Origin: Chrysomallon squamiferum
Taxonomy: Eukaryota > Animalia > Mollusca
Length of the DNA stretch: 64,000 bases
Assembly: GCA_012295275.1 (NCBI GenBank)
Contig: CM022672.1
Coordinates: 124,001 to 188,000 of the forward strand
Direction: 5' to 3'
Positions 4,103 through 63,801 of this stretch are shown one piece after another; positions within the stretch are counted from its first letter, which is position 1; every line of letters starts with the position of its first letter. Both the position numbers and the translations under genes were made by a program. The notes below the pieces were generated by a model that did not search any database, was not told the origin of the DNA, and worked only from the letters and a program-made list of their open reading frames with translations.

Positions 4103-4467
4103 ATAAATGCGATTCAGTAACTTCCATACTGGCTGATCCAAGAAATGTTTATTCAGGTGATACAAGTGAATCACAACAGATAGCAGCATCTACAATACCA
4201 TTTTCATCACAATCCACTTCACAGAACACAGGTGAAAGTATTCGTTTGCCACTTTCAGCTACAGTGAAGGAAGAAGGCATAAGTTCAGTGATAACATTAG
4301 AAACCTCTGATAACACAGAGGAACATACAACAGAAAGTGACATTGGTGATAACTTGCAAGAAACTATGTCACTTGGTTTGGATGCTTCAGCAAATTATTC
4401 TAATAGTTCACAAAGTGGAATTGATGAAAATTCAGCATCATCTTCAGCCTATATATCACAGTTCAAG
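4103..4467 (+). CDS. Common coding exon 2 (acidic/Ser-Thr-rich linker, VKEE SUMO-consensus motif), ending in the shared phase-0 donor
   Basis: Acceptor ttttttctgcag ends at 4102; phase-1 join keeps the frame open (DKCDSVTSILADPRN...ATVKEEG...AYISQFK); donor AAG|gtaaat after 4467. Confidence 0.85.
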
Positions 4468-10949: not shown

Positions 10950-11138
10950 TGGCACAGACGCCCTTACCGTTCTGCATACAGCCTTAAGGATATTGATATG
11001 GCTGTCAGCCTTGTTGTCAACAAGCAGGCAAACTTGAGTACTGCCAGCAAGATCAGCGGTGTTCCAATAGCCACACTCCATAGACATGTGAGGCGGAGAA
11101 TCAAAATAAATGAAAAAAAACAAAAAACATTGACATAA
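10950..11138 (+). CDS. Alternative terminal exon P1: pipsqueak-type (HTH_psq/CENP-B N-like) helix-turn-helix; absent from the ORF track
   Basis: ctgtttcag| then phase 0: WHRRPYRSAYSLKDIDMAVSLVVNKQANLSTASKISGVPIATLHRHVRRRIKINEKKQKTLT*; matches the psq pattern YS..D...A...V....S...A....GVP..TL. Confidence 0.8.
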   Translation, partial: WHRRPYRSAYSLKDIDMAVSLVVNKQANLSTASKISGVPIATLHRHVRRRIKINEKKQKTLT

Positions 11139-13990: not shown

Positions 13991-14185
13991 AGCACACCTG
14001 TTGGATATCGCCGATCATTCAGAAACTATAGTCAAGAACAAATCAACTTTGGTATTCAGCTTGTTTCTCTTGAACACTGTAGTCTGTGTAAAGCCAGCAA
14101 GGTCTGTGGTGTTCCAAAAGCCACTCTGTTTAGGATTCTCCGACGAAGGAAAAATATAGAAGCACAGAGACTAGACACATTTTAA
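13991..14185 (+). CDS. Alternative terminal exon P2: pipsqueak-type helix-turn-helix
   Basis: cctttcag| phase 0: STPVGYRRSFRNYSQEQINFGIQLVSLEHCSLCKASKVCGVPKATLFRILRRRK...*. Confidence 0.8.
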   Translation, partial: STPVGYRRSFRNYSQEQINFGIQLVSLEHCSLCKASKVCGVPKATLFRILRRRKNIEAQRLDTF

Positions 14186-16497: not shown

Positions 16498-16704
16498 ATG
16501 AGGTGTTTACCAGCATCAGGGGATGCACACTGTATGTGTTCTGTATGTAACAAGACTTTCACATCTGTGTTTTATCTTCAACAGCACACGCAGAAGCATG
16601 ACCAGTGTCATCATCCCTGCCTTTTATATAGAAAGAGCTTAACTCTCAAATCAAGTCTCTACAAACATGTTAAAAATAGATGCCATATCAAAAAACAGTT
16701 ATAA
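16498..16704 (+). CDS. Alternative terminal exon Z3: C2H2 plus a degenerate second finger (CLLY; second Cys replaced by Tyr)
   Basis: catttccag| phase 0; CSVC..HTQKH / CLLYRKSLTLKSSLYKHVKNRC; frame open but possibly decaying. Confidence 0.7.
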   Translation: MRCLPASGDAHCMCSVCNKTFTSVFYLQQHTQKHDQCHHPCLLYRKSLTLKSSLYKHVKNRCHIKKQL

Positions 16705-35655: not shown

Positions 35656-36428
35656 TGTATTATCAGTTCCTTTTCACATTATATTTAATGTCCATTTTAT
35701 AAATGACATTAGTACACCAATGTCATGTACAACGTCAGTTCATTAGTACATTGTTGATACAGCATTCAAAGTCAGTACATTGGAAGAATGTACAACACAT
35801 GAAGTACAAAGTTAATGCACAGGTACAACATCAGTAAAACATAAAAGGTCAACATTAGTAGAATATTAATATTAAGTACAAAGGCAGTATATTGGTACAA
35901 CATGATACATCAACATTGTTAATAGGTTGATGAATAGTCAGTATACAGTGTCAGTATCTGACACATCAGCAAGGTGTTAACAGGTTGTCACAAATGAAAC
36001 TTATAAAACAAGATATCTTTTATCTAAAATATGTTGCTGGGGCATTACTTAAAGTGGTACTTAGGTAGGTGGGGTAGTGGTATAAAACATTTTTAGTTCT
36101 GTATTCTCAGAGCAGTTTGAACTGAAAACAATTTTTTGGTTTGATAGTAGAGTCTCATAAATTAATCCATTGTTGTATATAAATAGCTGTAGTTCAGATT
36201 TTGATTATGATGATAATAAAGGTTTCTACACATTGAGTTGACATTGTTTCTGTTTTAAATTAACATTGTGTTTAATGGTCATATTTATAAATGGCAGAAG
36301 TTTCAGTGATGGATCATATAAATGTGTGTTTAAATGAATTCTTCTGTTTTATTTTCAGAGTACATTACAGTTTTATTTACAGGGTTTAATGTAAATTTAT
36401 TGGAAACATCAAATTGTTTTACTTTCAG

Positions 36429-36602: not shown

Positions 36603-37904
36603 CCCATGATGAATAACCACTGAAAACTATATGAACCATATAGTAATCTGGATATTTGAATATAAAACAAAGGCCAAGAATAAGATACCAGTTTATACCT
36701 GAAATTCATTTATATTTCATATAGTGATGGATTGCAGGCAGTTTTGTGTAATGTGTAAAACTACTTTGGGCATAAAATGAAATTTGAGCACACAAAACAA
36801 TATATGAAACCTTCAAGTTACCTGGGCTGCTCAAGAAAGGTTATGAATAAGGAATCCTCAAGCTGAACTAATTCATTGAGAATTAGACTTGTTATTGGTG
36901 AGCCCTGTGGTTCAGTCATCACCAAAACTAAGATACTCGTGGTGTTTTCAGTTCTATTTATGTTTCTATAAAGCTTTATTCTGTTGCAGCTTCTTTACCA
37001 CAAGAACAAAAAACTAATAAGAATGAGTGAAGACATTTCAACACATTTTAGTATTCAGACTTACCATCTGTCACACAAATATAATATAATAGTGGTTAGA
37101 GAAAGAAACTGGTTGACTGAGATTTACAACATTACTCATCAATTCTTATAAGGAATCACTCTATTGCAGCTCTGGCTAGAACTGGAAGTATTACAACAAG
37201 TACATTATAAAGAACTCACATTACTGTAAAGGAATGATTATACTCAATTAACTGTAAATTGTTGATAAACCTGAATATTAGATATTTATGACAAACTGCA
37301 CATACTAATGTTATAATGTTTATATTTTACAATAAAAGTAATCTGCTCTCTCTGGTGTTTTTTTTTTTCTTTTTTTTTATTTTTTATTTTTTTATCTTTC
37401 CAACTTGAAAAATATTCAATTTTGATTGCTTATGTTAGGGTAATTTATCTAGTGTGACTGATAGGTGGAAGATTTGCCCTGCTGACAGCATGAAATTTCT
37501 TATGATAATATTTTAAAAGAGACAAATCCAAATTTAAAAGAAGTCATACTGGCAGAAGTACTAGTTCAAAATCCCACCAGGGGCAAGAAGTTTGTAGTGA
37601 AGTTTCAAAAGGATTACCTATAGGTGTCTTAACCCAATCTATCAATCATACATTAATAAATTTCTTTGCTAAAGCAGCAGAAATCTCTATCAATCAACAG
37701 CAGACATGATCCTTTAATAGAAAATGACAAAAACAAACAAATGGGTCTTAAGAACTGACTACTCTTCTCTTGTCACACAAAAGCCAATAAAGTACCAAAT
37801 GACCAGCTGTGTTACTTGATCTGTGATATTTTTGGTGTGGTCATTATATCCTCAGCTGGCTTTTTAAAAAATAAAACTACAAAGATGTATTTCTCTGTAT
37901 TCAG

Positions 37905-38172
37905 TATTTTATCTCATACATCACTGTCTGACTACATCATCTCATACACATCACTACCAGACTACTTCATCTCATACACTTCACTATCAGACTATTTTAT
38001 CTCATACATCACTATCAAACTACTTCATTTCATACACATCACTACAGACTACTTCATTTCATACTCATCGCTATCAGACTGCTTCCTCTAATAATAGCTA
38101 TCAGACTGCTTCATTTCATACATCACTATCAGACTACTTCATGTCATACATCACTATCAGACTACTTTATTT
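37905..38172 (+). repeat. Minisatellite, left arm (~28-30 bp unit catacacatcactatcagactacttcatct)
   Basis: About 9 degenerate tandem copies; reverse complement of the 38750-39680 array. Confidence 0.85.
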
Positions 38173-38292
38173 CATTAATTAACCACACTCTAATAGCTCT
38201 CAGTGTGACAGCTGCTTTCTCCTTCATAATTAATATTTAAATGAAACATACAAGTAATTATTTATTTACTTTAATTTTGTTTACTTTGACAG

Positions 38293-38339
38293 ACGCAAAT
38301 TAAAGAAGAATATAAAGATGAGCTGACTCTGACACAACA
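38293..38339 (+). CDS. 47-nt internal adaptor exon (phase 0 in, phase 2 out): TQIKEEYKDELTLTQ
   Basis: Acceptor ttttgtttactttgacag ends at 38292; donor CA|gtaagt at 38340; frame open; supplies the phase needed by Z20 and Z21. Confidence 0.75.
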
Positions 38340-38749
38340 GTAAGTATATTCACGTTCTTCCGTTTTCTTTTTTTCCACAGAAATATTTAATTTCTAACAT
38401 ACAGCCAAACCAACCAAATCACACAAAAGGACCCACAAGAAGACAATTATATAATAATAAATACAATATTAAATAAAATTAATGAAAATATATGTAACAA
38501 TAAATATTTTAAAATATATAAATAAATAATACAAAAATAAACATGAAAACAATTTGAACATTTCATTGTTTTGTTCACAACATTGTCATTTTCCTTTAAT
38601 ACCTGTATACCTTCCTTATTTTAAGCACAGCAAAAAAAAATAAATAAAATAAAATAAACAAAATAAATAAATAAATAAAATTTAGTATTAGTTGAATATT
38701 TTGCTGATAAATCTGTTTTTATTTTTACGATATCATAGGCTACTTGAAT

Positions 38750-39680
38750 TGTCTGATTGTGATGTATGAAAATACTATTGTGTGATAGTGATCTATGAGA
38801 TAAAGTAGTCTGACAGTATTGTGTATAAGATAGTCTCATAGTGATGTGTGTGAGATAAAGTAGTCTGACAGTATTGTGTATGAGATAGTCTCATAGTGAT
38901 GTGTGAGACAAAGTAGTCTGACAGTGATGTGTATGAGACAAATTAGTTTCACAGTGATGTGTATGAGACAAAGTAGTCTGACAGTGATGTGTATGAGACA
39001 AAGTAGTCTGACAGTAATGTGTATAAGATAAAGTAGTCTGGCAGTATTGTGTATGAGATAGTCTCATTGTGATGTGTATGAGACAAGGTAGTCTGACAGT
39101 GATGTGTATGAGACAAATTAGTTTCACAGTGATGTGTATGAGACAAAGTAGTCTGACAGTAACATGTATGAGATAGTCTCATAGTGATGTGTATGAGACA
39201 AAGTAGTTTGACAGTAATGTGTATGAGATAGTCTCATAGTAATGTGTATGAGACAAGGTAGTCTGATAGTAATGTGTATGAGAAGGTAGTCTGATAGTAA
39301 TGTGTATGAGATAAAGTAGTCTGACAGTGATGTGTATGAGACAAATTAGTCTCACAGTCATGTCATATGAGATAGTCTCATTGTGATGTGTATGAGACAA
39401 AGTAGTCTGACAGTAATGTGTATGAGATAAAGTAGTCTGACAGTGATGTGTATGAGACAAAGTAGTCTGACAGTAATGTGTATGAGACGAAGTAGTCTGT
39501 AGTGATATTTATGAAATAAATATATTGATAGTGATATGAATGAGATAAAGTACTTTGACAGTGATGTGTATGAGATTGTCTCATACATATCACTATGAGA
39601 CAAAATAGACTGACAGTGATGTATACGAGATCACGTAGCATGACAGTAATGTATATGAGATGAAGTAGTCTGTGAAATGA
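38750..39680 (-). repeat. Minisatellite, right arm (~30 bp unit gtgatgtgtatgagacaaagtagtctgaca)
   Basis: Roughly 30 tandem copies with variants; inverted relative to 37905-38172. Confidence 0.9.
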
Positions 39681-40009
39681 TCTGGACAGTGTACAAAGAA
39701 GTTAAAAAAGAAAACAATGATGGACATTTCTCATTAACTCTTAGTTTAAATTGTTTGTCTGAAATCTGTATCAGATGGAGTATTTTAAAATCATGTGAAA
39801 TAGTTTGAGACAGCATGTGTGGTGTGTATGACAGAAAGAAGTCTCACTCTGTATCAGATGAAGTGTTGTTGTCTAGGTGTACCTGGAAACTTATATATGT
39901 GTATGTATGTGGTAATATTTTCTTGATCTATTTCATAATATAGCCTTGATGTACTGATGAAGGTGACAGACAGCTTTATAAATAATATAATCATTGATGT
40001 ATATATACC

Positions 40010-40755
40010 AGGAGTGTACATAATATGCTCAATGTCATACAGGATAAAGTATTGGGTGGCAGGCAGGAGGGTACATAATATGTTCAGTGTTGTATGGGAT
40101 AAAGTAGTAGGTGGCAGGCAGGAAGGTATATAATGTTCTGTGTTATACATGATGAAGTTGTAGATAGAAGACAGGAAGGTACATAATATGCTCACTTTTG
40201 TACAGGGTACAGTATTAGGTGGTAAGCAGGAGAGCAAATAATATCCTCAGTGTTTTACATGATAAAATTGTAGATAGAAGACAGGAGGGTACATAATGTG
40301 ATCAGTGTTGTACAGGATACAGTATTAGATGGCAGGCAGGAAGTTGTATAATATGTAGAATGCTGTACAGGATAAAGTAGTAAGTGGCAAACAACATTAT
40401 AAATAATATAATCATTGATGTATAGCAGGATGGTACGTAATATATTCAGTGTTGTACAGGATATAGTAGCAGGTGGAAGTTAGGAGGTACATACCATACT
40501 CAGTGTTGTATAAGATAAAGTAGTAGGTGGCAGGCAGGAGGTACCTAACACACTCAATGTACAGGATAACATAGTAGGTGGCAGTTAGGAATGTACAAAC
40601 TATACTCAGTGTTGTACAAGATAAAGTAGTAGGTGGCAATTAGGAGGTACAGTGTTGTACAGGATAAAGTGTTAGGTGGCAGTTAGGATGTACACAACAC
40701 TCAGTGTTGTACAGGATAATGTATTAGGTGACAGGCAGGAGGGTATATAACATAC
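40010..40755. repeat. Degenerate ~55-bp tandem repeat abutting the Z20 acceptor
   Basis: Recurrent gtacataatatgctcagtgttgtacaggataaagtagtaggtggcaggcaggagg-like unit. Confidence 0.8.
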
Positions 40756-40770
40756 TGTTCTTTGTTTCAG

Positions 40771-41011
40771 AATGGATGAGCGCCTGCCTTATGTTTCACT
40801 TGACGATGATGTAAAGGAACAGTTTTCTTGTCGTACTTGTGCTAAAACATTCCGTCAGCGGCGAAACTTGATTCGTCATCACAGGAGTGTTCACCAGGGC
40901 TTGCTTTTCACTGCCTGTCCTCAGTGTGGTCGTGTGTTTAGCAGAGAGGATGCTATGAAAGTTCATTTGAAATCAAACTGCAGTTTCAGAAATCATTCTA
41001 CTGCTAGTTAA
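40771..41011 (+). CDS. Alternative terminal exon Z20 (phase 2): divergent C2H2 + C2HC pair
   Basis: tttgtttcag|A ATG GAT...; CRTC..HHRSVH / CPQC..HLKSNC; a phase-0 reading stops after 2 codons (AAT GGA TGA). Confidence 0.82.
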
Positions 41012-41827
41012 CTATCATATACACAACATCACACAGACATGTAGATGATAAAAACATGAAGCAGTGCCAAAGAACATTTGTTACTTCAGAACAATCTAAC
41101 TAAATAAATAACATGAAGTTCATACAGTCTGTTTATTATTTCTAAGATAAATGATACAAGTTTTAGTCTGAATTCAGATTATAAAATACAACTCATCTGT
41201 TTACTTTTATTAGTATAATTTATATCATATATTTCATAATCCTACCGATCCAAATCATGCAATTTTTGTTACTATTTTACTTTTGTTGTTTTTGTTTGTT
41301 TGTTGTTGTTTTGTTTTTTGTAATATATCCCACCTACTTCATTTTTTGCATTATGTATGTTTCCTACTTCATGTTTATAGTAATCTGTCAACTGTTTTCA
41401 TATTTCTATGTAATCTGTTTCTTTCCGTTTCATGTGTCTGTAACATGTCTGCAAACCACAAACCTGTTTGTAATGAGTGTCTCTATCATGGACACTTTAT
41501 ATTAATAGATGTAAAACAAATAGATAAATTGCACACTTTCAGTAATAAATACAAAGTATATGTATGTAATTGCTTGTGTGGATAATGTCCAATTTTTTTC
41601 ATATTACATTCATCTGTGTGTGTATATGTATCTACAGACATCATCTTTCTACATTTTTTGACTTCATAAATTTACACTGCATGTGTTGTTAGTTTATATT
41701 GTGTGTCTGTATATTACAATGTTCTATAAGTTTTATCTTTGTATGTCTGTACAATGGGTTTCATGAACCTGTGTGCCATGCTGCTTCTGTCATTCATACA
41801 CCGATATATGTTTTGTTTTCATTTTAG

Positions 41828-42128
41828 AAATGTTGTTTTGCTGGAAAATACTGAGAAATGCTATGACTCCATAGAACAACCAAGTGAACGTCTCTGGTCA
41901 TTACAGACTGCAGAGATGACAACACGACAGCATTGCAACCATTCTAAAAGAAAGGACTACAAATTTTCCTGTGATGTTTGTGGGCGAGCATTCGGCCGAC
42001 GTGAACACCTAGAAGATCATCGAAGGATGCACTATGAGCCAGCCTTGCCATGCAGTCGATGTGGTCAGATCTTCCGGTATTCCAGGAACCTGAGAGCTCA
42101 CAAAAAGAAATGTAAACAAGCATTATGA
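41828..42128 (+). CDS. Alternative terminal exon Z21 (phase 2): divergent C2H2 + C2HC pair
   Basis: ttttcattttag|A AAT GTT...; CDVC..HRRMH / CSRC..HKKKC. Confidence 0.8.
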
Positions 42129-43632
42129 AGTTGTGAAACATTTCAGTAAGCAGGAAAGTAGCAGTATAAATGCATATTTGTTTTAACATTCAGTGATCAA
42201 ATACTGTACTTGATTAACTATTAAAGCTAACAGAAATTCATATGAACTTACAAAAACAAGGCAGACAAAAGGAAATATCAAGTGTATTACATTTGTTATT
42301 TTTTTTGTCAAAGAAGATGACACTGGGACAAAAAGATGTGTGTGTGTGTGTGACAGTAAGGTTGTGTAACTAGAGGTTTTGTGGGTTTTCAAATACTCAT
42401 ATGCTGCAGTCCCAAATCATCACTAACCTGTTCATACCTGTGTGCTAGTACAATATTTTCTTTACAGCTATAAAGTGCCAGCATCTGTTATTTAACAACA
42501 AACTTCATCACCGAGAAGAAGAGTATTTTTTAAAGAGACTTTTGGTTAAGTGAAGAAACATAAGATACTCACATCAACATACTACATGATAGTGAATATT
42601 GAGAAGCTTAAAGGTATACAAATGAATCAAAATCATAAAATAATTAACATTACCAATACTTTCTCACCACTTTTATGATATGCCAAATAAATTCACATCT
42701 TTCATAAAAGAAATAAGCCCCTTCTGAAAAGTTGTACATAAATAAATAACTATGTGCACCTAAAATGTCAAAAATAAAGATCTCATAACATCACTGTGTT
42801 ATTTTCTGATATATAGAAATTCAAAGGGTTTTACAGTTGCATGGTATCTCATTGATGTCTGCCATGTTGAAAATTGCCCAACAACATTAACTCCAAGTAA
42901 TTATTCATAGGCTCCATGTTCCTAGCTCTGCAACACTAACTTTAACACCAGCAGCAAGCTGATTAAAAAGACAATAGGTGGCACAAGTTTGAAGAAGCAA
43001 TATCTTGTCAGTCATTGTCTATGACCCATATACAATATATTAAAAATACATAATTAAATAAATAAATATATAGATAAATAAAACGTCAATTACAAAAATT
43101 AACAGTGAGCTAATTCATTAATTTACTGATAATGTCCAGCCTTTTGTCATTAATATCCATTTTACTTAGCAGTTGTTGAAATCTGACCATGTGAAAATAT
43201 AACTTTAAAATGTAGCATGTCTACAGCTCTTTCAAGTATCTTCAAACGACAATTGTAATAGGCATTTTCTGCACCAACTTGTTTACTGAACAACTCAGTT
43301 TAGAAAGGTTTTTTAAAAATTATTATTATTATTATTATTATTATTTTAAACCTACTTGTTTTACCCTTAATAACCTGAGTCTTTTGCATTTAAATCTCTT
43401 CCGGCTCAGTTTTCCTGGTGTTTCTTCAGATGTACATGGTTACGTCTCCCGTTTTATTAACCTCGACTTCAGAGGAAGGTTTCTTCTGGATGATTTGTCA
43501 CACCTCTTCAGTATTTTTTCTCACCCATGCGAAATGGCTTCATCCACACTATCATCTTCTTCCAGGACAGTTTTGCTTGCTTCTTATGGCGATTAGCAAC
43601 ATTTTTAGAAATAAACAAATAAATAAACTATG

Positions 43633-51251: not shown

Positions 51252-54200
51252 ATGTATGTATGTATGTATGTATATATATACAAATTAAATTAAAAAGAAA
51301 GAACAAATTAATAAAACATAAAATAATAATCTAATAAAATCTAACATAACTGAAACTAAACAGTACAACATAATATAAATATATATAATACAAACTAAAC
51401 ACAATAGAACACTATATATATATAAATATAACACAAACTAAACACAATACAACACCATATAGATATAAATATAACACAAACTAAACACAACACAATATAG
51501 ATATAAATATAACACAATACAGCACAGTAAACATATACATATATAAAATAAACTAAGATCCGTAGGGCTGAGGTTGTTAAGAAAGAGATGCAGAATCTGA
51601 ACTGTGTTTTCACCATCGTTTTGATCTTCATCTGTCTGAAGACTGTATTTTAAACAATCTCAGGATGCTTTTTTCCATAGGGGTACACACGTCTGAAATG
51701 TATAGATATTTGATATGATATAATAAAATGTTTACATTTGCATTTTTGCTTTGCTAAATGATCGTTTCTGATTCTATACTCGTACATAAACAGAAAACTA
51801 CAAATTAAGGGAACGCCATCCCTCTGAGTACTCTGTTTCCATAACTGATTAAAATACAAACTAAAATATTTTACCTAGTACGACTGTAGTCGCCATTCTC
51901 AGATATTCAGCGACTGAGCATGACGACCCGATTCAACAGATCCTAGTTTAACCGAATAACAATTCGTAAGTTACTTTCCCAGCCAGACATTTGTTTTCTC
52001 ACTACATACATAACGCCATAATTTATACAATTTTTTTACTCGAAATATAGCTGCTATAACTTGTCCTCTAAAAACTGCGTCACAAAACGAAATTTATGTA
52101 ACATCTAGTGACCTAGTTGTTCATTGTTATAGTTGAGTTGTTATACACAAATAAAAATAAACGTAGTTTTTGTTTGTTTGTTTATGTAAAGGGTGCGGTT
52201 TTGTGCTAGAATGGAATATGAAACTGTTTGAAGAGAAGATAATACGTTCTTGTATGGTGCGCAGAAGTTACTGTGAGCTCACACAAACTGGTGCGAGTTG
52301 CAGAAACATTCTCCACGTAATTTACTGCAAAGATTTAAATTCAAATGAAAATATCCACAGACACAACGAGAATAAATCAAACGTATAATGATATGATGAT
52401 GATTATATTGTTGACGATGATGATGATTATATTGTTGACGATGATGATGATGATGATGTAAAATGATGCTATAAAGAGGAAATCCGCTAGCTTCTTTAAC
52501 TGCCTTGTTTTGCTTTCTTGATAAACCTGCTTACAGAACAAAACACAAAGCGAATCTAGACAAACTGATATATGTACATATACATACATATACACATACA
52601 CATACATACATATAAATACATACACATACACAGACACAAACACATCCATAAACAGACATACGCGTACACAAACACACTCAAATACCTACACATACCAACA
52701 AAAATACATACATACATACCAAAACATACGAACAGAGCACACACGCATCATACACATATCGACACGTATATACACATACAGTATGTATTGTTTTCATTCT
52801 TTTAGCATGTCTCGATCCTTTTGGTATGCAGAATGGAGAAATCAAAGCAGAGCAGCTGAAATCATCCTCTGTGAAAAACGGCCTTAGTGTGGATTATGCG
52901 AGACTGAACTGTTGTACAGGTGAGTAGCTTGGTCACTATTAGTGAGTAACTTGCTACATGTATGAACATCAGAGCTTTATTAACCTGATATAAATGGTAG
53001 AATATTTTGCATTTTAAGCATTGAAAAAGAGCTAAGAAGAGAAATACATCGCTGATATAAACTGATCTTATTCGTATATTTTGGTAATGACCATGAACCA
53101 GTATACACGCTATCGTTTAAATTAAAGTAAAATAGATTTAGTTTTAGCTGACTGTACCACAACAGAACCGTCAGCTGAGCGCTTGTTTCATAGCTGATCA
53201 CAGGTTCTTCACTCACTATTTACTCAGTTGTTTATTTCTAAATTTTACAAGTTGTAAATATGTTATTTTGTGATGAACATGTAGTCACCCTATTTGTCGT
53301 TATGTCAGATTCTCTCACAGGATTTAAACGCATAGTCAATGTCGATAATAGTCTAATTTACATTTCACTAGAAGCTAACAGCTTGTGTATTGAAAGCGAC
53401 AATAATTTGTATTCAGCTGTGTTTTTCGCAATGCATTTCATATATAAAAAAAATAATAATAAAAAGAAAAAAGAAAAAAATCAATATACCGTTTACTTAA
53501 CACTAAGTTTTTTTTTTGTTTGTTTTTTTGTTTATTATTCATGTAACTGAGTTTATTTCACCTATGTTTTTCGTTTCATTTTGATTCCGCTTTGTTTCCC
53601 ACAACACTTTAATATTTTAATAATTTGACACTATCACAAAGAGGGCGTGGCAAATATTGTGTTTCATTATAGACAGTATGTGGTGTAGGACGTACAGGAT
53701 ACAACAGTATTCTTTACATATTCACTGATGACGTTTTCAAATAATAATCACTAGGCGTAGTCCTTACTAGTATTCAAATACAAAAAATATTTTCATAATC
53801 ACTGTATTTTTTATCAGTATAACAACTCTATTTCGATGAGAATGTAAAGGCTCGATGTATTTCAAACTCACATAAAAGTTATTATTCACGTTTCAAACAC
53901 TTATAGAAAAGTAGCGTTTTTTTAATTTGCTTCATTTTTCTTACATTTTTAGAGAGATAAAGACAGTATCTGACAGACACACCTAGCTTCTTATATAATA
54001 CTGTGACGTAGCTTAATATAATGTTATTGTCCATAATAAAATACACTGAGAAAGAAGTGCTGTATTACTTGTTGTCACACATGAAATAGTTATTATGTTA
54101 ACAAATTAGCAAATTAAGTTTATAAAAACTCTAATCATTACTTGTTTAAATGGCTTCTTGGTGGATGTAGAATGACTGCTGTAACATTTCGAGACTTTCA

Positions 54201-54460
54201 CTATTTTATACTGTCATTTCTCAACTGTAAAAGAGTATCATTTCTACTGCTGTTTTACAAATATCTCATCTGATTTATTTCTTATCACATTCTTTGTAAA
54301 AACTGCTATTCACCTAATCGATTGCCTGACACTTTCACTGAAGATTCAGATAGGAACGCTTTAGTTCCAACATCCCAAAAATCTCTACGTAATAACGCTA
54401 AGGAGTTAAAATTTTAATTAGGAGTTTATACATAATTTTAAGAAGTTATTATCAATCAAA

Positions 54461-54493
<33 letters not shown>

Positions 54494-55678
54494 ATTGTCC
54501 ACCTAATACTGATATATCAGATATTTTTAATTAATTATTTTGAGTTGTGATAGTTCTATGAAAATTAATGTTTTATAGACGAATATATATTACAGTCACT
54601 GTTGATAGTTCAGTATACATTAGTGTTGTTTAGTATACATTAGTCAGTGTTGATAGACTTAAGTTTCGCAGCGGTGTCGACATAACCCTGATTCCTGTTT
54701 GACTTGTTTGACAAATGCAGGTAAAATTATAAGCCTGTCATCATATATCTCCTCTATTGTACGTGCACAACACAATTCATAGAGCATATTTCTCTAGAAA
54801 CGTGGCTCATTTTTTATACAACAGTTATTTATGAAACGTTTATTGTTGACAAAGACGAGCAGTCACTGTTTACTTAGCTTTCATATTTGACGACAACGAA
54901 AAGCGGAATTTCTTCATATCTTATTACTTTCATATTCATAAAATATAATTTTTTTATGATGTCATGTCGTTAAAACTACATTTTTTGCCGAAATCGTCTC
55001 ACAGTATCGTCTCCGGTCAGATAAAATTACTTGTTGTTAATGCATCACTAATCATAAACTACTGTAAATTTCCTCCAAAATAAACGTATAATAGTGTTAA
55101 CAACACGGTACACATTAAATAACGCCTACTCGATAAATATCGCAGATCAAGTGACGCAGCTGAAAGCTGCTCTCACCCCCACCCCTCCCACAAGACAGAA
55201 AAAGAGAGACAAGCAAAGTGAGACAGAGAGAGACAACCGAACATAACGTCAGAGACTGAGAGAGATAGTAAATGGGTTGGTTATAGTTAAAAGTAACTGT
55301 GTGTGAATGTGTATATGTAAGAGTCATGGAAAATGGTTGGTAATTGCAAACGTTTAATGATTCTGATTATGAATTAGCAAATTGGATCGATTGTGTAACT
55401 AAATTAATCTTCCTTTAGTGACACAAATGAAACCAGAAGCTGATTTTCTTGTTATCTTAATATTAGCAAGTATGGGCAACAAGCCAAATATTTTTTCTTT
55501 TCAAACCTGTTGTGTTTTGTTGAATATATTGAAATGTATTATAGTATTGTATATTCTGGTGGGGCCTCGTTCATTTGCACGTGGTATGAATTTCTTTGTC
55601 CACTGAAAGGAAACATTTTTTTTATATTTTTTTCAAATTATTATAGTGGGCTTCCTGTCTCATTCTATTATTCTATTA

Positions 55679-55771
<93 letters not shown>

Positions 55772-58636
55772 TTTGTTTGTTTGTTTGTTTGTTTGTTTGT
55801 TTGTTTGTTTGTTTAATTACTGAACTTACAGACCCTATTTTAATATTAAAAAGTAATGGCTAAAATCCGATCGAACCTGTATAATTGATTCAATAATAAT
55901 CTACTTTGATTTGCTTATCTTTTAAGATGTTGATTATGGTGCCTGGTGCCCCAAGAATACAAGTGCTGGCGAGTGGTTCGAGGTGAACTTTTATAAGCCG
56001 GCCAATGTTACGCAAATCACACTGCAGATACCAGCAACAAAGAACACGAGCATTGTCAACTACATAACACGATTCAAGATTCAGATGGAGCTGTCGACGT
56101 CATCCCCTGGTGACCTCACAACATACGAAGAGCCAGAATCACACAGTCAGGTCTGTTTACATGTAGACTGATGAAATATACTTCGTAATACGATGTTTTC
56201 TGATCATTACACCAGTTTACTTCTTACTTTACTGTTAATACAGAACACTTCTTACTTCACTGTTAATACAATACACTTCTTATTTGATAGTTAACACAAT
56301 ACACTTCTTATTTGACTGTTAATACAATACACTTCTTATTTGACTGTTAATACAATATACTTCTTATTTGATTGTTAACACAGTACACTTCTTATTTGTT
56401 TGTTAAACCAGTTTACTTCTTACTTCACTGTTAACACAATACACTTCTTATTTGTTTGTTAACACAATACACTTCTTATTTGTTTGTTAACACAATACAC
56501 TTCTTATTTGACTGTTAATACAATACACTTCTTATTTGTTTGTTAATACAATACACTTCTTAATTGATTGTTAATACAATACACTTCTTATTTGACTGTT
56601 AATACAGTACACTTCTTATTTGTTTGTTAAAACAGTTTACTTCTTACTTCACTGTTAATACAGAACGCTTCTTACTTCACTGTTAATACAATACACTTCT
56701 TATTTGACTGTTAATACAATATACTTCTTATTTGATTGTTAATACAATATACTTCTTATTTGATTGTTAACACAGTACACTTCTTATTTGTTTGTTAAAC
56801 CAGTTTACTTCTTACTTCACTGTTAACACAATACACTTATTATTTGACTGTTAATACAATATTTATTTGTTTGTTAACACAATACACTTCTTATTTGTTT
56901 TACAAACTTATTTGACAATACACTTCTTATTTGATTGTTAACACAATACACTTCTTATTTGTTCTTATTTACTTTTGTTAATACTTATTAATACAATACA
57001 CTTCTTATTTGTTTGTTAAACCACTTGTTAATACTGTAAACTTCTTATTTGTCTGTTAATACTTATTTGACTGTTAATACAATATACTTCTTATTTGATT
57101 GTTAACACAGTACACTTCTTATTTGTTTGTTAAACCAGTTTACTTCTTACTTCACTGTTAACACAATACACTTCTTATTTGACTGTTAATACAATACACT
57201 TCTTATTTGTTTGTTAACACAATACACTTCTTATTTGACTGTTAATACAATACACTTCTTATTTGATTGTTTTCTGTTAATACAGTAAACTTCTTATTTG
57301 TTGTTGTTAATACGGTACACTTCTTATTTAAAACAGTATACTTACTTTCTTCTTACTTAATTATTAATTTACTGTTAATACAACTTGTTATTTGATTGTT
57401 AAAGTACACTATATTACACTTCTTATTTGACTGTTAATACAATTTTTATTTGTTTGTTAAAATATACACCTTATTTATCCGTTAAAACAGTATGCTTCTT
57501 ATTTACTGTTAACTCAATAGATCGTTAATAATACACTTATTTGTTTTTACGTGCTCTTATTTGACTGTTAAACAGTATATTTGTTTACTGTTTCTTAATT
57601 GATTGTTAATCCAGTAAACTTCTTATTTACTGTTAATACAGTATACTTCTTATTTGTCTGTTAATACGGTACACTTTTATTCAGTATGTGTGTTACTTTT
57701 TCACTTTAAACTCCTGTGTTTTTTACGTTTTTACCTAATTAAGCCAATGTTTAACCTAAAAATATTTTGTACGATTTTAATACCAATATACACCTTACGT
57801 ATCCGTTAAAATAGAAGACACGAGATCGTTAATAAGTACACTTTTATTCGTGAGAAAGTATATTATTACGTTAACTACTTTTTCTCTAATTACTTCTTAC
57901 TTTTCGTTTATTCAGTATGTGTGTTACTTATTCCTACTATTGTGTTTTACGTTTTCATTAAGCCAATGTTTAACCTAAATATAATATGTATTAATGTATA
58001 TATAGAAGACAAATGTGTATTACAAAAATATATTACGATTATTACTACTACTATTGCTATTCCTACTATTGGTACTATTACTACTACTACTACTAGTACT
58101 ATTACTATTACTAATATCACTACACTTATTACTAACACAATTGTTGTTGTTTTTATTAGCGAAGTAATGATTTGTTTTATTTCATTTTTTAAAAGGTGTT
58201 TGAGGCAAATTTCACTGCATCCTCTACCTGGTCAATGGCTGTATCATCAGATGCAGTACGACGTGTTCGAGTCGTCGTTGTAGACTTCCATAATGAGCCG
58301 TGTTTTAGACTAGAGTTGGCTGGATGCTACGTTAACGGTAAATTATTTCAACTGTTATTCTGTCAAATGTTAAAATTAAATTATAATTAATTTCACAGTC
58401 GCGTAATACTTTTATATTATCTTTGAACTCGAATTTCTTCCCAGATGTTTCCGTGCTATAACTCCATCAACTAATATGATGATCTGAACAGTAGATTACC
58501 AGTAAAAGAAAGCTACACTTTCCAACGACATGTAGTTGGGGCTCTCAGTAATGTAGTATACTTCGTAGGGAATGTCAGGTGTCGCTGATTTGTGTTATTA
58601 TATGTTTATAAACATTCTCATGAATTTCTACAACTG

Positions 58637-58728
<92 letters not shown>

Positions 58729-61700
58729 ATTGGTTCTTTTCTTCAGTTACGATTCCTGCCAATGCTTTGACAAAACCTAGCCTCTATTTGGAATATACGT
58801 CACTGGATAAGATGTACCTTGTTTGTGTCATAAATGATAAAGTCACCTTCAGTGTACAGTACAAAGTCACATGGTATCAGGAGGATACCAAAACCACTTC
58901 AGTGTTATTGAAAAACGGTGAAATGCAAAATAAACAGCTTGTACTGGCTTCCAACTTTACACAGAAACAAAGAGTAAGAAATATATATTGTTACTACACA
59001 ACCATCACTATTACTACTGATACTAATAATACTGATGCTGCTGCTACTACTAGTATTGCTGCTATTATAACTAATATTACTGCTGCTACTACCGCTCTAC
59101 AGCTACCACTACAATTATTACTACTATTACTACAACTACTACTCACCTCAGCAGGTACTATTATTACCATAGCTACTGTTAATACTACAGTTACCTCCAT
59201 TATTGATAAATACTTTATTACTACTGCAACAATTACTACTATTACTACTACTCTACTATTACTATAAGCTGTAATTATTGCACTACTTCTGTTAGTACTC
59301 TGCTGCAATAACAATTTCTTTTACTCTCGCTAAAACAACAGCTACTACAACTATTATTATATTGATAATGATAATAACGATTATGGTAATAATGGTGATG
59401 ATTATGGTTATTGCAATGATTAAACGAAAAAAATAAAATAAAATAAATAAAATAAAATGGCAGATAAAATACTACTATTACTACTATTATTGCTTTTACT
59501 ACTCCTCCTCCTACTACTAATAATAATAAATAAATAAATAAATAAATTAAGATTACAAATAAATATTTTCAGCACGTGTGTAAAGTGCAGGCTTGCTACA
59601 CGCCGCTCTGTGGAGACCAGCTCAGCGACGTGAAAGTCAGTGACGTGTACAGACCACAGATACGGGTGAGTTGACGTCGTCGCTAGTGGTGTTCTGTCTG
59701 TGTGTTGTAGACATAAAAATGCCTGTGTACTTTATGTATACATTTTATTAAAATATATTTTATGTATATTGTTTGATTTTTATAATTGTGCACTTTCTGT
59801 ATACATTTTATTATAATGTACTTTATGTATACATTATAATAGTTGTGTACTTTTTATAGACATTTTAACAGTAATCTATTTTGTATATACATATTAATAA
59901 TAATGTATGCTTATTAGTAATAGTGAACTTTGTTCACATACATTAACAATACTCTTGCGAACATTATTTATTTAGTAATACAAGTTATTCTTTCTGTGTT
60001 ACAGCTTGTCTCTGATGAACATCTCAATCTGACAGAGGGAGAATCAGACGTACGGATCAAATTTACTTTCAATGCACCACCCAATTTACTCTGTCTTATT
60101 GCAAACAAAAAGCTCGACTGCAAAGTGTTTGTCGTTGCCATGGTCACTGACAAAGATCCAGTAAAATGCAGTTCTCCAGCAGACTGGCTGCTTCCTCAGA
60201 TTGTGTTTCCTACAGTGAAAGAAATGGGATGCGCAACTCCCATCACAATGGCGAGGTGGCAGACAACACAGAGTGTGAGAGTGAGAGCGAACCAGGACAT
60301 GTTGATTGATGGTTCCCGCTCATCACTGGTCACTCTCATTACAAAGATAGACGATTACATCTATAGCGAATCACAGACAAAATCAGAGGTAAACATGACT
60401 GCAGCAAATTTTGTGTTCAGAAAATCTGTACCAAGTAAATAGTACAAAAAAAGAAAAGAAAAACGAAAAGAAAAGAAAAAAAATATGAAAATGAAAAAGA
60501 AAATATAAAATACAGAAGTGTAATATAAAATGCTGAGTATTAACGTCCAAGTGGTAATACAGTCATTTTAATATTTATTTTCTACTTTCAGGTTTCAATA
60601 AAAGACAACGATAGGAAAGCTGTCTGTCAGTCTCTTAATGATCCACATTTGAAAACATTCGACAACAAGTAAGTCTAAATGTTTCAAGTTTGAAAACATT
60701 CAATAGAATGTGAGTCTAAATGTTCCACGTTTGAAAATATTCGACAAGTAAATCTAATTGTTCCACGTTTGAAAACATTCGACAAGCAAGTATAAATATT
60801 CCACGTTTGAAAACATTCGACAAGTAAGTATAAATATTCCACGTTTGAAAACATTCGACAAGTAAGTATAAATATTCCACGTTTGAAAACATTAAGTTTA
60901 GATGAAACAGATACCGTGATTAATTCTAATTTGAAATATAATACGTAATAAGCTCAGTATGGTATTTGTACAATATACAAAGCTATTTTCGTAATACGTC
61001 TTGCACAATATAGATAGATAGATAGATAGATAGATACAGAGATAGATATATAGTCTTGCACAGTATATAGTTACAGTGCATAATAGGTTTTATCTTCAGA
61101 ATTCAATGATATATTTTAGATACTACGACTACCACAGTGAAGGTGAATTCATCTTCTATCGAAACAAGAAGCTCCCATTTGAGGTAATTAGTTACTGCTT
61201 TCTAAGTATGATCTTCCAAAAAACCCAAAACATTTATTGATTTTTATTTTTTTCTCTTTTAATCTAATGCTCCTTACGTATAATACATGATATTAATTTT
61301 CAAAACATTATAGTACTAAATAAAATTAATACTTGTTCTATCAAGACTGGCTGTACGTAAGTTAGATAATATTATATTCATTGTACAAATGATGAAACTA
61401 AATTATATTGAACATATTTTTTTTTTTTGCAGGTTAGGACGTTCTACAAAAAGTGTGTTGCAAGTAACAATGCGTCGCCGTCGTGTAACTGCGCCGCGGC
61501 TGTGAAGTCTGGCGATGACGTCATTGTATTCAAAGGCTGTAAACCAGGCGAGGGAATTTCAGTTGATATGTTCCTGAACAGAGACCTTGAAAATGGCACG
61601 AGCGTCTTCAGATATAAAGGAGGCAAGGAGTACAAGGTATTCTTAAAGTTATGATTTTAGTCGTGCCCATGCTATTCACAATCTGTGTTGTCAGTCGTGT

Positions 61701-63801
61701 AACTTTTACTCGGTGTATATAGTAGCTGGACCAACAGGACCGATAACTCGTACAGCACAAATTACGTCACCGGAAAAAATGACTGCAGAATATGCCATTT
61801 AATGGGTACAAACTACACCTGAATGTTCTTTTCTTTTGGGTTGTTACATGGGGAACATTGCCAATTAGAAATGTTAATATATTAATCTTGTAATAAATTA
61901 TAATTTTAGTTTATTATGTATGCATTTTCAAAACTCCATAGCGGACAGTTCCGAGTAAATAGTTGTAAAACAATACTTGAACTATTATAATTTTTTTTTT
62001 TTTTTTTTTATAATATTTATTTCCATTTTCAATATATTAAAAGTGGTATTTTCATGCAAAAAGCAAACTGATCTCGTTTTTTTTTTTTTTTTTTTTTAAA
62101 TGATTGCCTTGATACATTCATTAAGATGCCTGATACCCCTTATAGAACAAAACTGAAAAAAATTAAAGGTCCATCAGCCGGCCGTATAAAAAACAAATAG
62201 CGATCATATAAAGTTTTCACTCTTTTTCGTTAAAAGCTATACAGTTATGTATGCAAACTACGAATTTCCTATTTTCATTTTAAAAAGGTTATTGGTCCTT
62301 GTTATATTTAGTGCTTGTGTCGTATTAACTTTAATTTTAGTCGTGTCATTATTTTTTAGTACTCGGTTATTATCATTACACCTGTAATCACAGTCGTGTT
62401 CAGAAAAGTATTTGCCCTGTCGTATGATGTATAATAAAGCTGCTGTGCGAGTGAGGTAATCTTCCCTTCAGCGATATTTGTTTTTGATTTTTAAAATAAT
62501 TTCGATCGCCGATGACAAAGCAGCGAAAATATGGTTGCAATTCAGGCAAGTCGTGTAACAACAAATTGGTAGCATTTATGGCGAAAAAAAAGAAGAAGAA
62601 AAAGAACAAGAACAAGAAAAAAAAAAATGGAATTTAGATGATGAGGTAAAAAAAGGATTGCTGCAGTAATATCTAAGTATGGTTGTTTTGGTGCAAGATG
62701 TACCGTAGATCATCTGTCGCAAACGTATGAAAACAATTTTCATCCAATTTCAATAAAAAAGAAAAAAAGCCCAGAATAAAATAGTGATATATAGTGTTTA
62801 AGTACATCGATAGCTGTATATAGTATTTATAGTGCATCACTGGCTATATATATATAATATATATCTGTACATAGTGGTCATTGAATGTCAATAACTGTAG
62901 AGAGTGTTTATATTATCAGTTGATATTTATTATTATTACATTCTAATCATGTGTCTGTATTTTCTAGGTGGTGTTCCCCACTGGTGCATTCCTTGTCATT
63001 CGAGAGAGTTTCATGAATTTTATAAACATATGGTTTTACCCATCACCACTTGATTTCAACAACACAGAAGGTATTAGTCACATTTTATGTATTTCTGTAG
63101 TAATAAAGTTAAATAAATAAAGAAATAATTGTTTCAAACATGAATATAACAATTATTTTAATAAGATATGACACAGAAATGTGTAGATAAAACAAAAACT
63201 AAAAAACATAAAATTTAATCTTTGACTCTTCAAAAATGTTCCAGCCATTAAACATGAACAACTTTGAATACATTGATTTGTATTTAAAGTCTTGTGATTG
63301 TGAAAAGTTTATTTTGAAAAAGATCATCAAATCAGTGCCATTTCCATTTTATATAACATCAGATTATATTAACAAACTAAACATTGCTTCAGTGAGATCT
63401 TTGCAGCATATATTAAAAGTATGCATATTTCTTTATCTTTGTTTGTTAATATTCTAGGACTGTGTGGCAATTTTGATGCAGATGCAGACAATGATGAAGT
63501 TACAAGTTTAAAATGGAGGTATTTATTTATTTTCTTGAATAGACAACATTTAAGATCATATTTTTAAAATTACTTTTATGTGCAATTTTTATCTTCTTAT
63601 AGCACTGTAGCATGAAATGAAAATTTAGTCACACTTTCAGAGTGAGCAAAGAAGACAGCATCTACAATGGGCAGTGTCCAGGTAAAAGCACACCAGTCTC
63701 AGTGCCACTGACCACAGACTGTGCCTGTCAGTCTGATCAGCCTCAGTGTTCTGCATCACTGGGAATACAGACCTGTCACTTGTACAGCGGATACCAGACA
63801 G
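49404..63801 (+). CDS. VWDE-like secreted protein (signal peptide, F5/8 type C discoidin domain, Ig-like/unassigned region, VWD domain); multi-exon, continues past the window end
   Basis: Phase-consistent GT-AG exons: 49404-49470 (signal peptide), 52806-52919 (CLDPFGMQNGEI..YARLN), 55927-56150 (GAWCP..EWFEVNF), 58196-58337 (CFRLELAGC), 58747-58973, 59573-59665, 60005-60388, 60592-60668 (CQSLNDPHLKTFD), 61120-61183 (GEFIFYR), 61433-61636 (CNCAAAVKSGDDV), 62968-63070, 63458-63518 (GLCGNFD..DND), 63641-63801. Confidence 0.85.
56210..57690. repeat. Intronic 28-bp minisatellite, degenerate towards the 3' end
   Basis: Unit aatacaatacacttcttatttgactgtt repeated dozens of times. Confidence 0.95.
58640..58724. 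repeat. (AG)n microsatellite
   Basis: Pure AG run ending about 22 nt upstream of the exon at 58747. Confidence 0.98.
60644..60892 (+). repeat. ~38-bp tandem repeat derived from an exon 3' end plus its splice donor
   Basis: ccac[a/g]tttgaaaacattcgacaa(caa)gtaagt repeated about 6-7 times, the first copy lying inside the exon. Confidence 0.85.
61721..62304. mobile_element. MITE-like element, copy 2 (internally shorter), intronic
   Basis: Ends ggaccaa...ttggtcc; collinear homology with 43633-44582. Confidence 0.7.

Follow-up and report, generated by a model that had tools for sequence, protein, structure and literature searches.

An exon of 47 nt at 38293-38339 in Chrysomallon squamiferum DNA is very probably a genuine internal exon, joined by splicing to the last, and likely also to the second-last, of the 23 candidate alternative last exons of one gene, so that these two ends (Z21 and Z20) are likely made in two steps. 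Its splice sites and phases were read directly from the 64,000-nt stretch that was analysed (the window; contig CM022672.1, positions 124,001 to 188,000), one RNA junction joins it to Z21, and the gene models of an orthologue carry the same insert ahead of the counterparts of both ends. Two mutually inverted minisatellite arrays surround it. The interest of the locus lies more in the gene family and in the inverted-repeat loop than in the phase conversion on which the sequence-only reading of this DNA had been centered.

A gene with two constant exons and 23 alternative ends

On its + strand the window contains an animal gene with two constant coding exons followed by 23 candidate alternative last exons. 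Constant exon 1 (1942-2545, +; ATG at 1942) ends in a phase-1 donor, and constant exon 2 (4103-4467, +), encoding an acidic linker that contains the SUMO-type motif VKEE, ends in the phase-0 donor AAG/gtaaat. The last exons comprise two pipsqueak-like (psq-like) HTH exons (10950-11138 and 13991-14185, +; phase 0), scoring 19.3 and 17.5 bits with Pfam HTH_psq, both below its cut-off of 20.4 bits; 19 finger-pair exons (Z1-Z19, 15428-36602, +; phase 0), each with a C2H2 and a C2HC/C2H2 finger; and the finger-pair exons Z20 (40771-41011, +) and Z21 (41828-42128, +). The phases and positions that the sequence-only reading had assigned to the terminal exons hold: all 21 upstream ones are phase 0, and those at 40771 and 41828 are phase 2. 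The psq-like exons were absent from that reading, and the gene thus combines two DNA-binding folds. Z20 is a finger pair of paralogue type, its first finger having H-x4-H spacing, and Z21 has H-x3-H spacing and the 6-residue linker of Z1-Z19.

Each of the 23 stops is followed, at a distance of 71-1190 nt, by a poly(A) hexamer, which is unremarkable because the DNA is 31% GC, and RNA contigs cannot reveal transcript ends. An acceptor scoring 18.0 at 36359, 70 nt ahead of that of Z19, is followed only by a short frame, and a tandem array of 54-55 nt units (40009-40756) ends 15 nt upstream of the Z20 acceptor. Farther along the + strand, at 52825-63800, open frames that look like exons belong to another multi-exon gene, which is cysteine-rich and which by eye we take to be discoidin- and von Willebrand D-like; positions 16-600 hold what is, also by eye, presumably a decayed remnant of a Tc1/mariner-like transposase.

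The 47-nt exon, its junctions and its counterpart in Gigantopelta aegis

The adaptor exon (38293-38339, +) has the boundaries gacag/AC...ACA/gtaagt, consists of 15 codons plus CA in a frame open in phase 0, and encodes an IKEE motif. Entry in phase 0, exit in phase 2 and the CA/gtaagt donor were thereby confirmed from the sequence, and the GTAAGT donor is unique to the adaptor among 13 listed candidate internal exons at 4500-40770. The acceptor, described earlier as good, is weak, scoring 3.7 against 7.1-20.9 for the 21 terminal exons with a matrix built from this gene's own acceptors (the 22nd training site, that of exon 2, was one base off and scored 2.4); 112 of the 2065 AGs in the region match or beat it. 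As for the claim that direct joining of Z20 or Z21 to the donor at 4467 would be out of frame, a frame-0 reading indeed stops after 2 codons from 40771 and after 8 from 41828, but Z21 contains an in-frame phase-0 AG at 41907 that scores 9.0 (41828 scores 6.2), so that direct joining to Z21 is possible on paper and could bypass the adaptor. By itself the adaptor is an ordinary asymmetric exon. Two-tier splicing stands insofar as a shared, conserved exon forms a second tier, but its phase conversion was overstated, because every exon of a length not divisible by 3 converts phase.

RNA contigs from four runs of one study were placed on 40757-43300, giving 22 pieces. The junction 38339 to 41828 is present in one of these, a 60-nt contig of depth 2 from one of the four runs (run X1); the 30 nt preceding 41828 in this contig equal 38310-38339 exactly, a sequence with a single occurrence in the window. 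The two other junctions proposed from the sequence, 38339 to 40771 and 4467 to 38293, were not seen in the contigs over 40757-43300; both are likely on the strength of predicted RefSeq models from Gigantopelta aegis. Unspliced contigs span the Z21 acceptor in three of the four runs (depth 8.4 in run X1) and the Z20 acceptor in run X1, and may derive from pre-mRNA, from extended 3' ends or from DNA. Among the loose contig ends listed over 40757-43300 in the same RNA set, none falls at 40771 or 41907, which carries little weight because contigs lose rare forms.

The first 80 residues of the gene are 98% identical to G. aegis LOC121384253, while exon 2 agrees at only 72 of 121 residues. Isoform ends of LOC121384253 match 15 of the 23 ends at 67% or more (11 of 19 within Z1-Z19), and the psq-like exons are 88-90% identical to theirs. 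Given the identity of the head and the 15 matched ends, LOC121384253 is the inferred orthologue in a related gastropod. All 18 of its 19 isoforms that were examined, which are predicted RefSeq models, have their first 344 residues in common and branch at a point matching the end of exon 2. Isoforms X2 (P0116), with a match to Z20 at 80%, and X1 (P0121), with a match to Z21 at 73%, share 22 further residues, and none of the 18 joins a Z20- or Z21-type end directly to the constant part. Aligned with the adaptor peptide, this insert sets LKTE against IKEE and matches the LTL-x-Q end; the alignment score of 16 is equaled by 3 of 5000 shuffles, and among 129 variable starts the runner-up reaches 1. 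The last common residue of the insert, a Leu, sits at the split codon of the adaptor and is compatible with it, and the insert would correspond to about 65 nt. Conservation in a relative, named in the sequence-only reading as a check on the exon, is thus found as a homologous insert in front of exactly these two ends. Comparison of four entries of the orthologue (P0001, P0112, P0113, P0126) shows an optional in-frame segment of 23 residues, homologous to the start of Z5 (18608), which precedes two different ends, each also found without it.

No adaptor was found in a third species. Searches for homologues gave 0 of 5 candidates with Z21 (one representative per 90% cluster) and 0 of 50 with the adaptor and Z20 region of P0116 (a 90%-cluster collection), but as even the known orthologue was not returned, these negatives carry little weight; a metagenome scan gave 10 loci of generic fingers at 28-46% identity, the orthologue not among them.

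We propose that ordinary cis-splicing would connect the donor of constant exon 2 at 4467 with the adaptor, passing over the 21 last exons in between, and that the adaptor would then be joined to either Z20 or Z21. The exon being 47 nt long (3n+2), its skipping would leave a fingerless tail of 2 or 8 residues, so that a single inclusion event would license both isoforms. The IKEE motif, which the earlier reading counted as an added SUMO consensus, is conserved in kind, but exon 2 in the constant region already has VKEE, so that the adaptor contributes a second copy and would provide a second, putative SUMO site.

Splice signals that arose by chance, or occasional noisy splicing, to which the weak acceptor with its 112 equals or betters and the junction depth of 2 might point, are a very improbable source of the exon, largely refuted by the orthologue's insert with its conserved motif and end sequence on exactly these two ends.

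Inverted minisatellites and the origin of the shared exon

The inverted minisatellite pair around the adaptor is a feature new to this analysis. The upstream array (37901-38179, +; 28-nt unit) is inverted relative to the downstream array (38747-39673, +; 30-nt unit), to which it is 75-80% complementary over about 265 nt, and the adaptor lies inside the loop of about 570 nt between them. Of the 13 arrays that were tested in the window, none besides these two is matched by an inverted partner, and their unit has no further occurrence there. Foldback-like transposons have terminal inverted arms of tandem repeats, a target-site duplication and dispersed copies; here the inverted tandem arms are present, the outer ends are without obvious likeness, and the window holds no second copy. 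The predicted duplex has an energy of -274 kcal/mol against a mean of -97 for 30 base shuffles, with 229 predicted pairs between the arms, and the arrays are predicted to form a long RNA stem that loops the adaptor. Such pairing in the pre-mRNA could loop out the weak-acceptor exon and tune its inclusion, and a shared exon whose acceptor is weak and which is flanked by such a repeat would be a compact control point for two distal ends.

On these data one may also suppose that selection built the frame lock together with the RNA stem, and that one switch (the stem, editing or a splicing factor) controls both distal isoforms cell-specifically. The weak acceptor beside a perfect intronic donor would suit such a regulated exon, as would the fact that the sole inverted pair among the arrays tested brackets exactly the adaptor with so low a predicted energy, and inverted intronic repeats can push a neighbouring exon to alternative splicing, according to the accessible part of PMC2533698. 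The experiment described in that part had both repeats within one intron, however, strong folding is expected of any inverted repeat, and the minisatellites may be recent and neutral; we regard this explanation as somewhat unlikely. We consider it fairly probable instead that the phase change is an accident of intron position, a by-product of where the module's intron lay that was later kept by selection, and give an evolved switch only a modest chance.

Z20 and Z21 are, as the sequence-only reading had stated, the most divergent finger pairs: their mean identity to the phase-0 pairs is 0.33 and 0.32, respectively, against 0.43-0.55 among the phase-0 pairs themselves. Z3 (16498-16704) was left out of this comparison; its second finger is degenerate, with the second Cys and a Gly changed, and is intact in the orthologue's end P0124. 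Z20 scores 100-107 against the finger pairs of three paralogues and 68 against the phase-0 pairs of its own gene, and the H-x4-H spacing of its first finger is that of three paralogues. Z21 scores 100 against Z1-Z19 and at most 74 against others, while its global identity (0.32 and 0.31) does not separate its own array from the others. Finger trees were built on 52 columns, one a quick tree of 115 rows and the other a tree of 68 rows without P0004 and P0131. Z20 fell outside the Z1-Z19 group in both; the position of Z21 differed between them, being outside the group in one tree and within it (support 91) in the other. None of the groupings is rejected by AU tests (p 0.765, 0.444 and 0.725). 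The suggestion that the two ends form a sub-array that is older or separately acquired therefore fits Z20, by its spacing and scores, but not Z21, and the tree tests reject neither. Since Z20 is like the paralogues and Z21 like its own array, the two probably did not arrive together as a single block, and a separate or older origin is plausible, as far as sequence comparison goes, for Z20 only.

These comparisons bear on the further explanation that the adaptor, Z20 and Z21 are the captured remnant of a front-less gene of the same family, in which case the adaptor would be a constant linker exon reduced in size. Many family paralogues lie on one G. aegis contig, SUMO-type motifs are typical of the constant regions (12 of 12 genes, exon 2 of this gene included) but occur at only 2 of 129 variable starts, and Z20 scores higher against three paralogues than against its own array; one of these three apparently has a CA/ phase-2 donor as well. 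Yet Z21 is nearer its own array, a single origin of all ends of this gene is not rejected (the AU test with p 0.765), and, the motif apart, the adaptor does not significantly resemble any constant linker (10 of 300 shuffles at best in 26 comparisons; 282 of 500 at the DNA level), which leaves the explanation unlikely. Likewise unsupported is the adaptor as a copy of exon 2. In the origin that we prefer, a paralogue-type phase-2 exon (Z20) and a diverged exon of local type (Z21) would have come to share the adaptor donor.

A promoter of their own for the adaptor and the two ends, with trans-splicing to exon 2 of the kind known for mod(mdg4) and, in part, for lola, or with separate translation, would account for ends located 33.8 kb from the donor and behind 21 competing last exons, and the available portions of the sources document trans-splicing at the fly loci. 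Every exon is collinear and on one strand, however, and the in-frame ATG at the start of Z20, a candidate for a start of its own, is without counterpart in the orthologue's Z20, so that we regard this explanation as improbable.

The gene family and known systems of alternative last exons

Among 12 G. aegis genes with at least 3 isoforms (a 13th group, from abalone and of mixed species, was set aside), three have a second splicing tier, which makes the second tier a family habit. In 11 of the 12 the first variable residues fit phase 0 only, with the qualification that paralogue phases were deduced from protein residues only and that duplicated exons may share first residues by descent. LOC121383032 and LOC121383526 have an 87-residue half-BEN exon ahead of 12 and 3 ends, respectively. 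The ends joined to it start only with D, E, G or V, fitting a phase-1 split codon; the 12 include one stub of 5 residues. The BEN domain is thereby split into a shared exon and 12 or 3 swapped C-terminal parts (P0060, P0069-P0076, P0164-P0168, P0177, P0179). In LOC121382870, 14 of the 15 ends listed (of 25 members) begin with Q and one with H, their second residues being varied, and the gene appears from these residues to have a CA/ phase-2 donor. Across the family the ends are C2H2, psq, BEN and PF12012.

The head domain (the first ~75 residues, 1942-2181) is predicted as a helix plus beta-hairpin at pLDDT 82 (60 in an earlier model). Exon 1 has no Pfam family at E<=1, and the domain has no PDB sequence match and no Foldseek match at E<=0.001, atlas matches being under 0.9; the best structural match (Z 5.2, rmsd 3.5, 66 aligned) does not establish a new fold. 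At E<=0.001 the domain has 75 representatives (10 of the new matches were looked up), and the named matches are from Gigantopelta, Haliotis, Pomacea, Batillaria, Babylonia and the bivalve Solemya, together with one insect repeat protein that is likely spurious. No description of this mollusc family, or of such a gate, was found among the titles and abstract openings searched, where subscription papers are mostly uncovered.

A bolder generalization is that molluscs independently built a lola-like repertoire on a non-BTB domain in many genes, that splice phase acts as a lock assigning subsets of ends to shared gate exons (phase 2 here, phase 1 for the 12 half-BEN ends), and that both distal isoforms are switched together when the minisatellite stem loops out the exon; taken whole, we rate it a long shot.

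Certain lola isoforms may contain more than one variable exon, in which case a second tier would have a precedent in lola itself. Drosophila lola has 20 alternative last exons, 17 of them zinc-finger exons (PMC10551640, PMC11426971, 10.1101/132027, each in the part available), and the accessible text of PMC10551640 describes the way in which one last exon out of about 20 is chosen as still open. The snail gene resembles lola in having constant N-terminal exons and about 20 last exons with differing short DNA-binding modules; here a single constant part is followed by 23 candidate last exons whose DNA-binding domains differ. It differs in its non-BTB head domain, known in gastropods and a bivalve, and in that its layout is repeated in many paralogues (the 12 G. 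aegis genes). In this gastropod family a layout like that of lola is attained on a head domain of another kind, unrelated to BTB, and C2H2, psq-like and BEN ends occur side by side. The TTK-type BTB was not found in Mollusca, so far as the available part of the source extends, and the absence of any BTB match in exon 1, together with the helix and hairpin model, means that the gene is not a member of the TTK-BTB group.

With mod(mdg4), which has over 30 isoforms, all formed via trans-splicing (PMC13490949, in the part available), the gene shares a single constant part with many variable 3' DNA-binding ends, whereas the ends of mod(mdg4) are mostly FLYWCH on a BTB head. The accessible sections of PMC1947980 and PMC6329818 contain nothing on shared exons. 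Like the neural microexons treated in the available part of PMC10551640, the adaptor is shorter than about 50 nt, has a weak acceptor and could add a modification site; those exons are often frame-preserving cassettes, whereas the adaptor is frame-shifting and probably obligatory for two ends. The inverted intronic Alu pairs of PMC2533698, as far as its accessible part describes them, are likewise long inverted intronic repeats near an alternatively used exon, but the snail repeats are minisatellite arrays that flank the exon on both sides, and their effect on splicing is hypothetical. The gene is no member of the lola or mod(mdg4) groups; it has a lola-type layout of alternative last exons with a shared-exon second tier and a non-BTB head.
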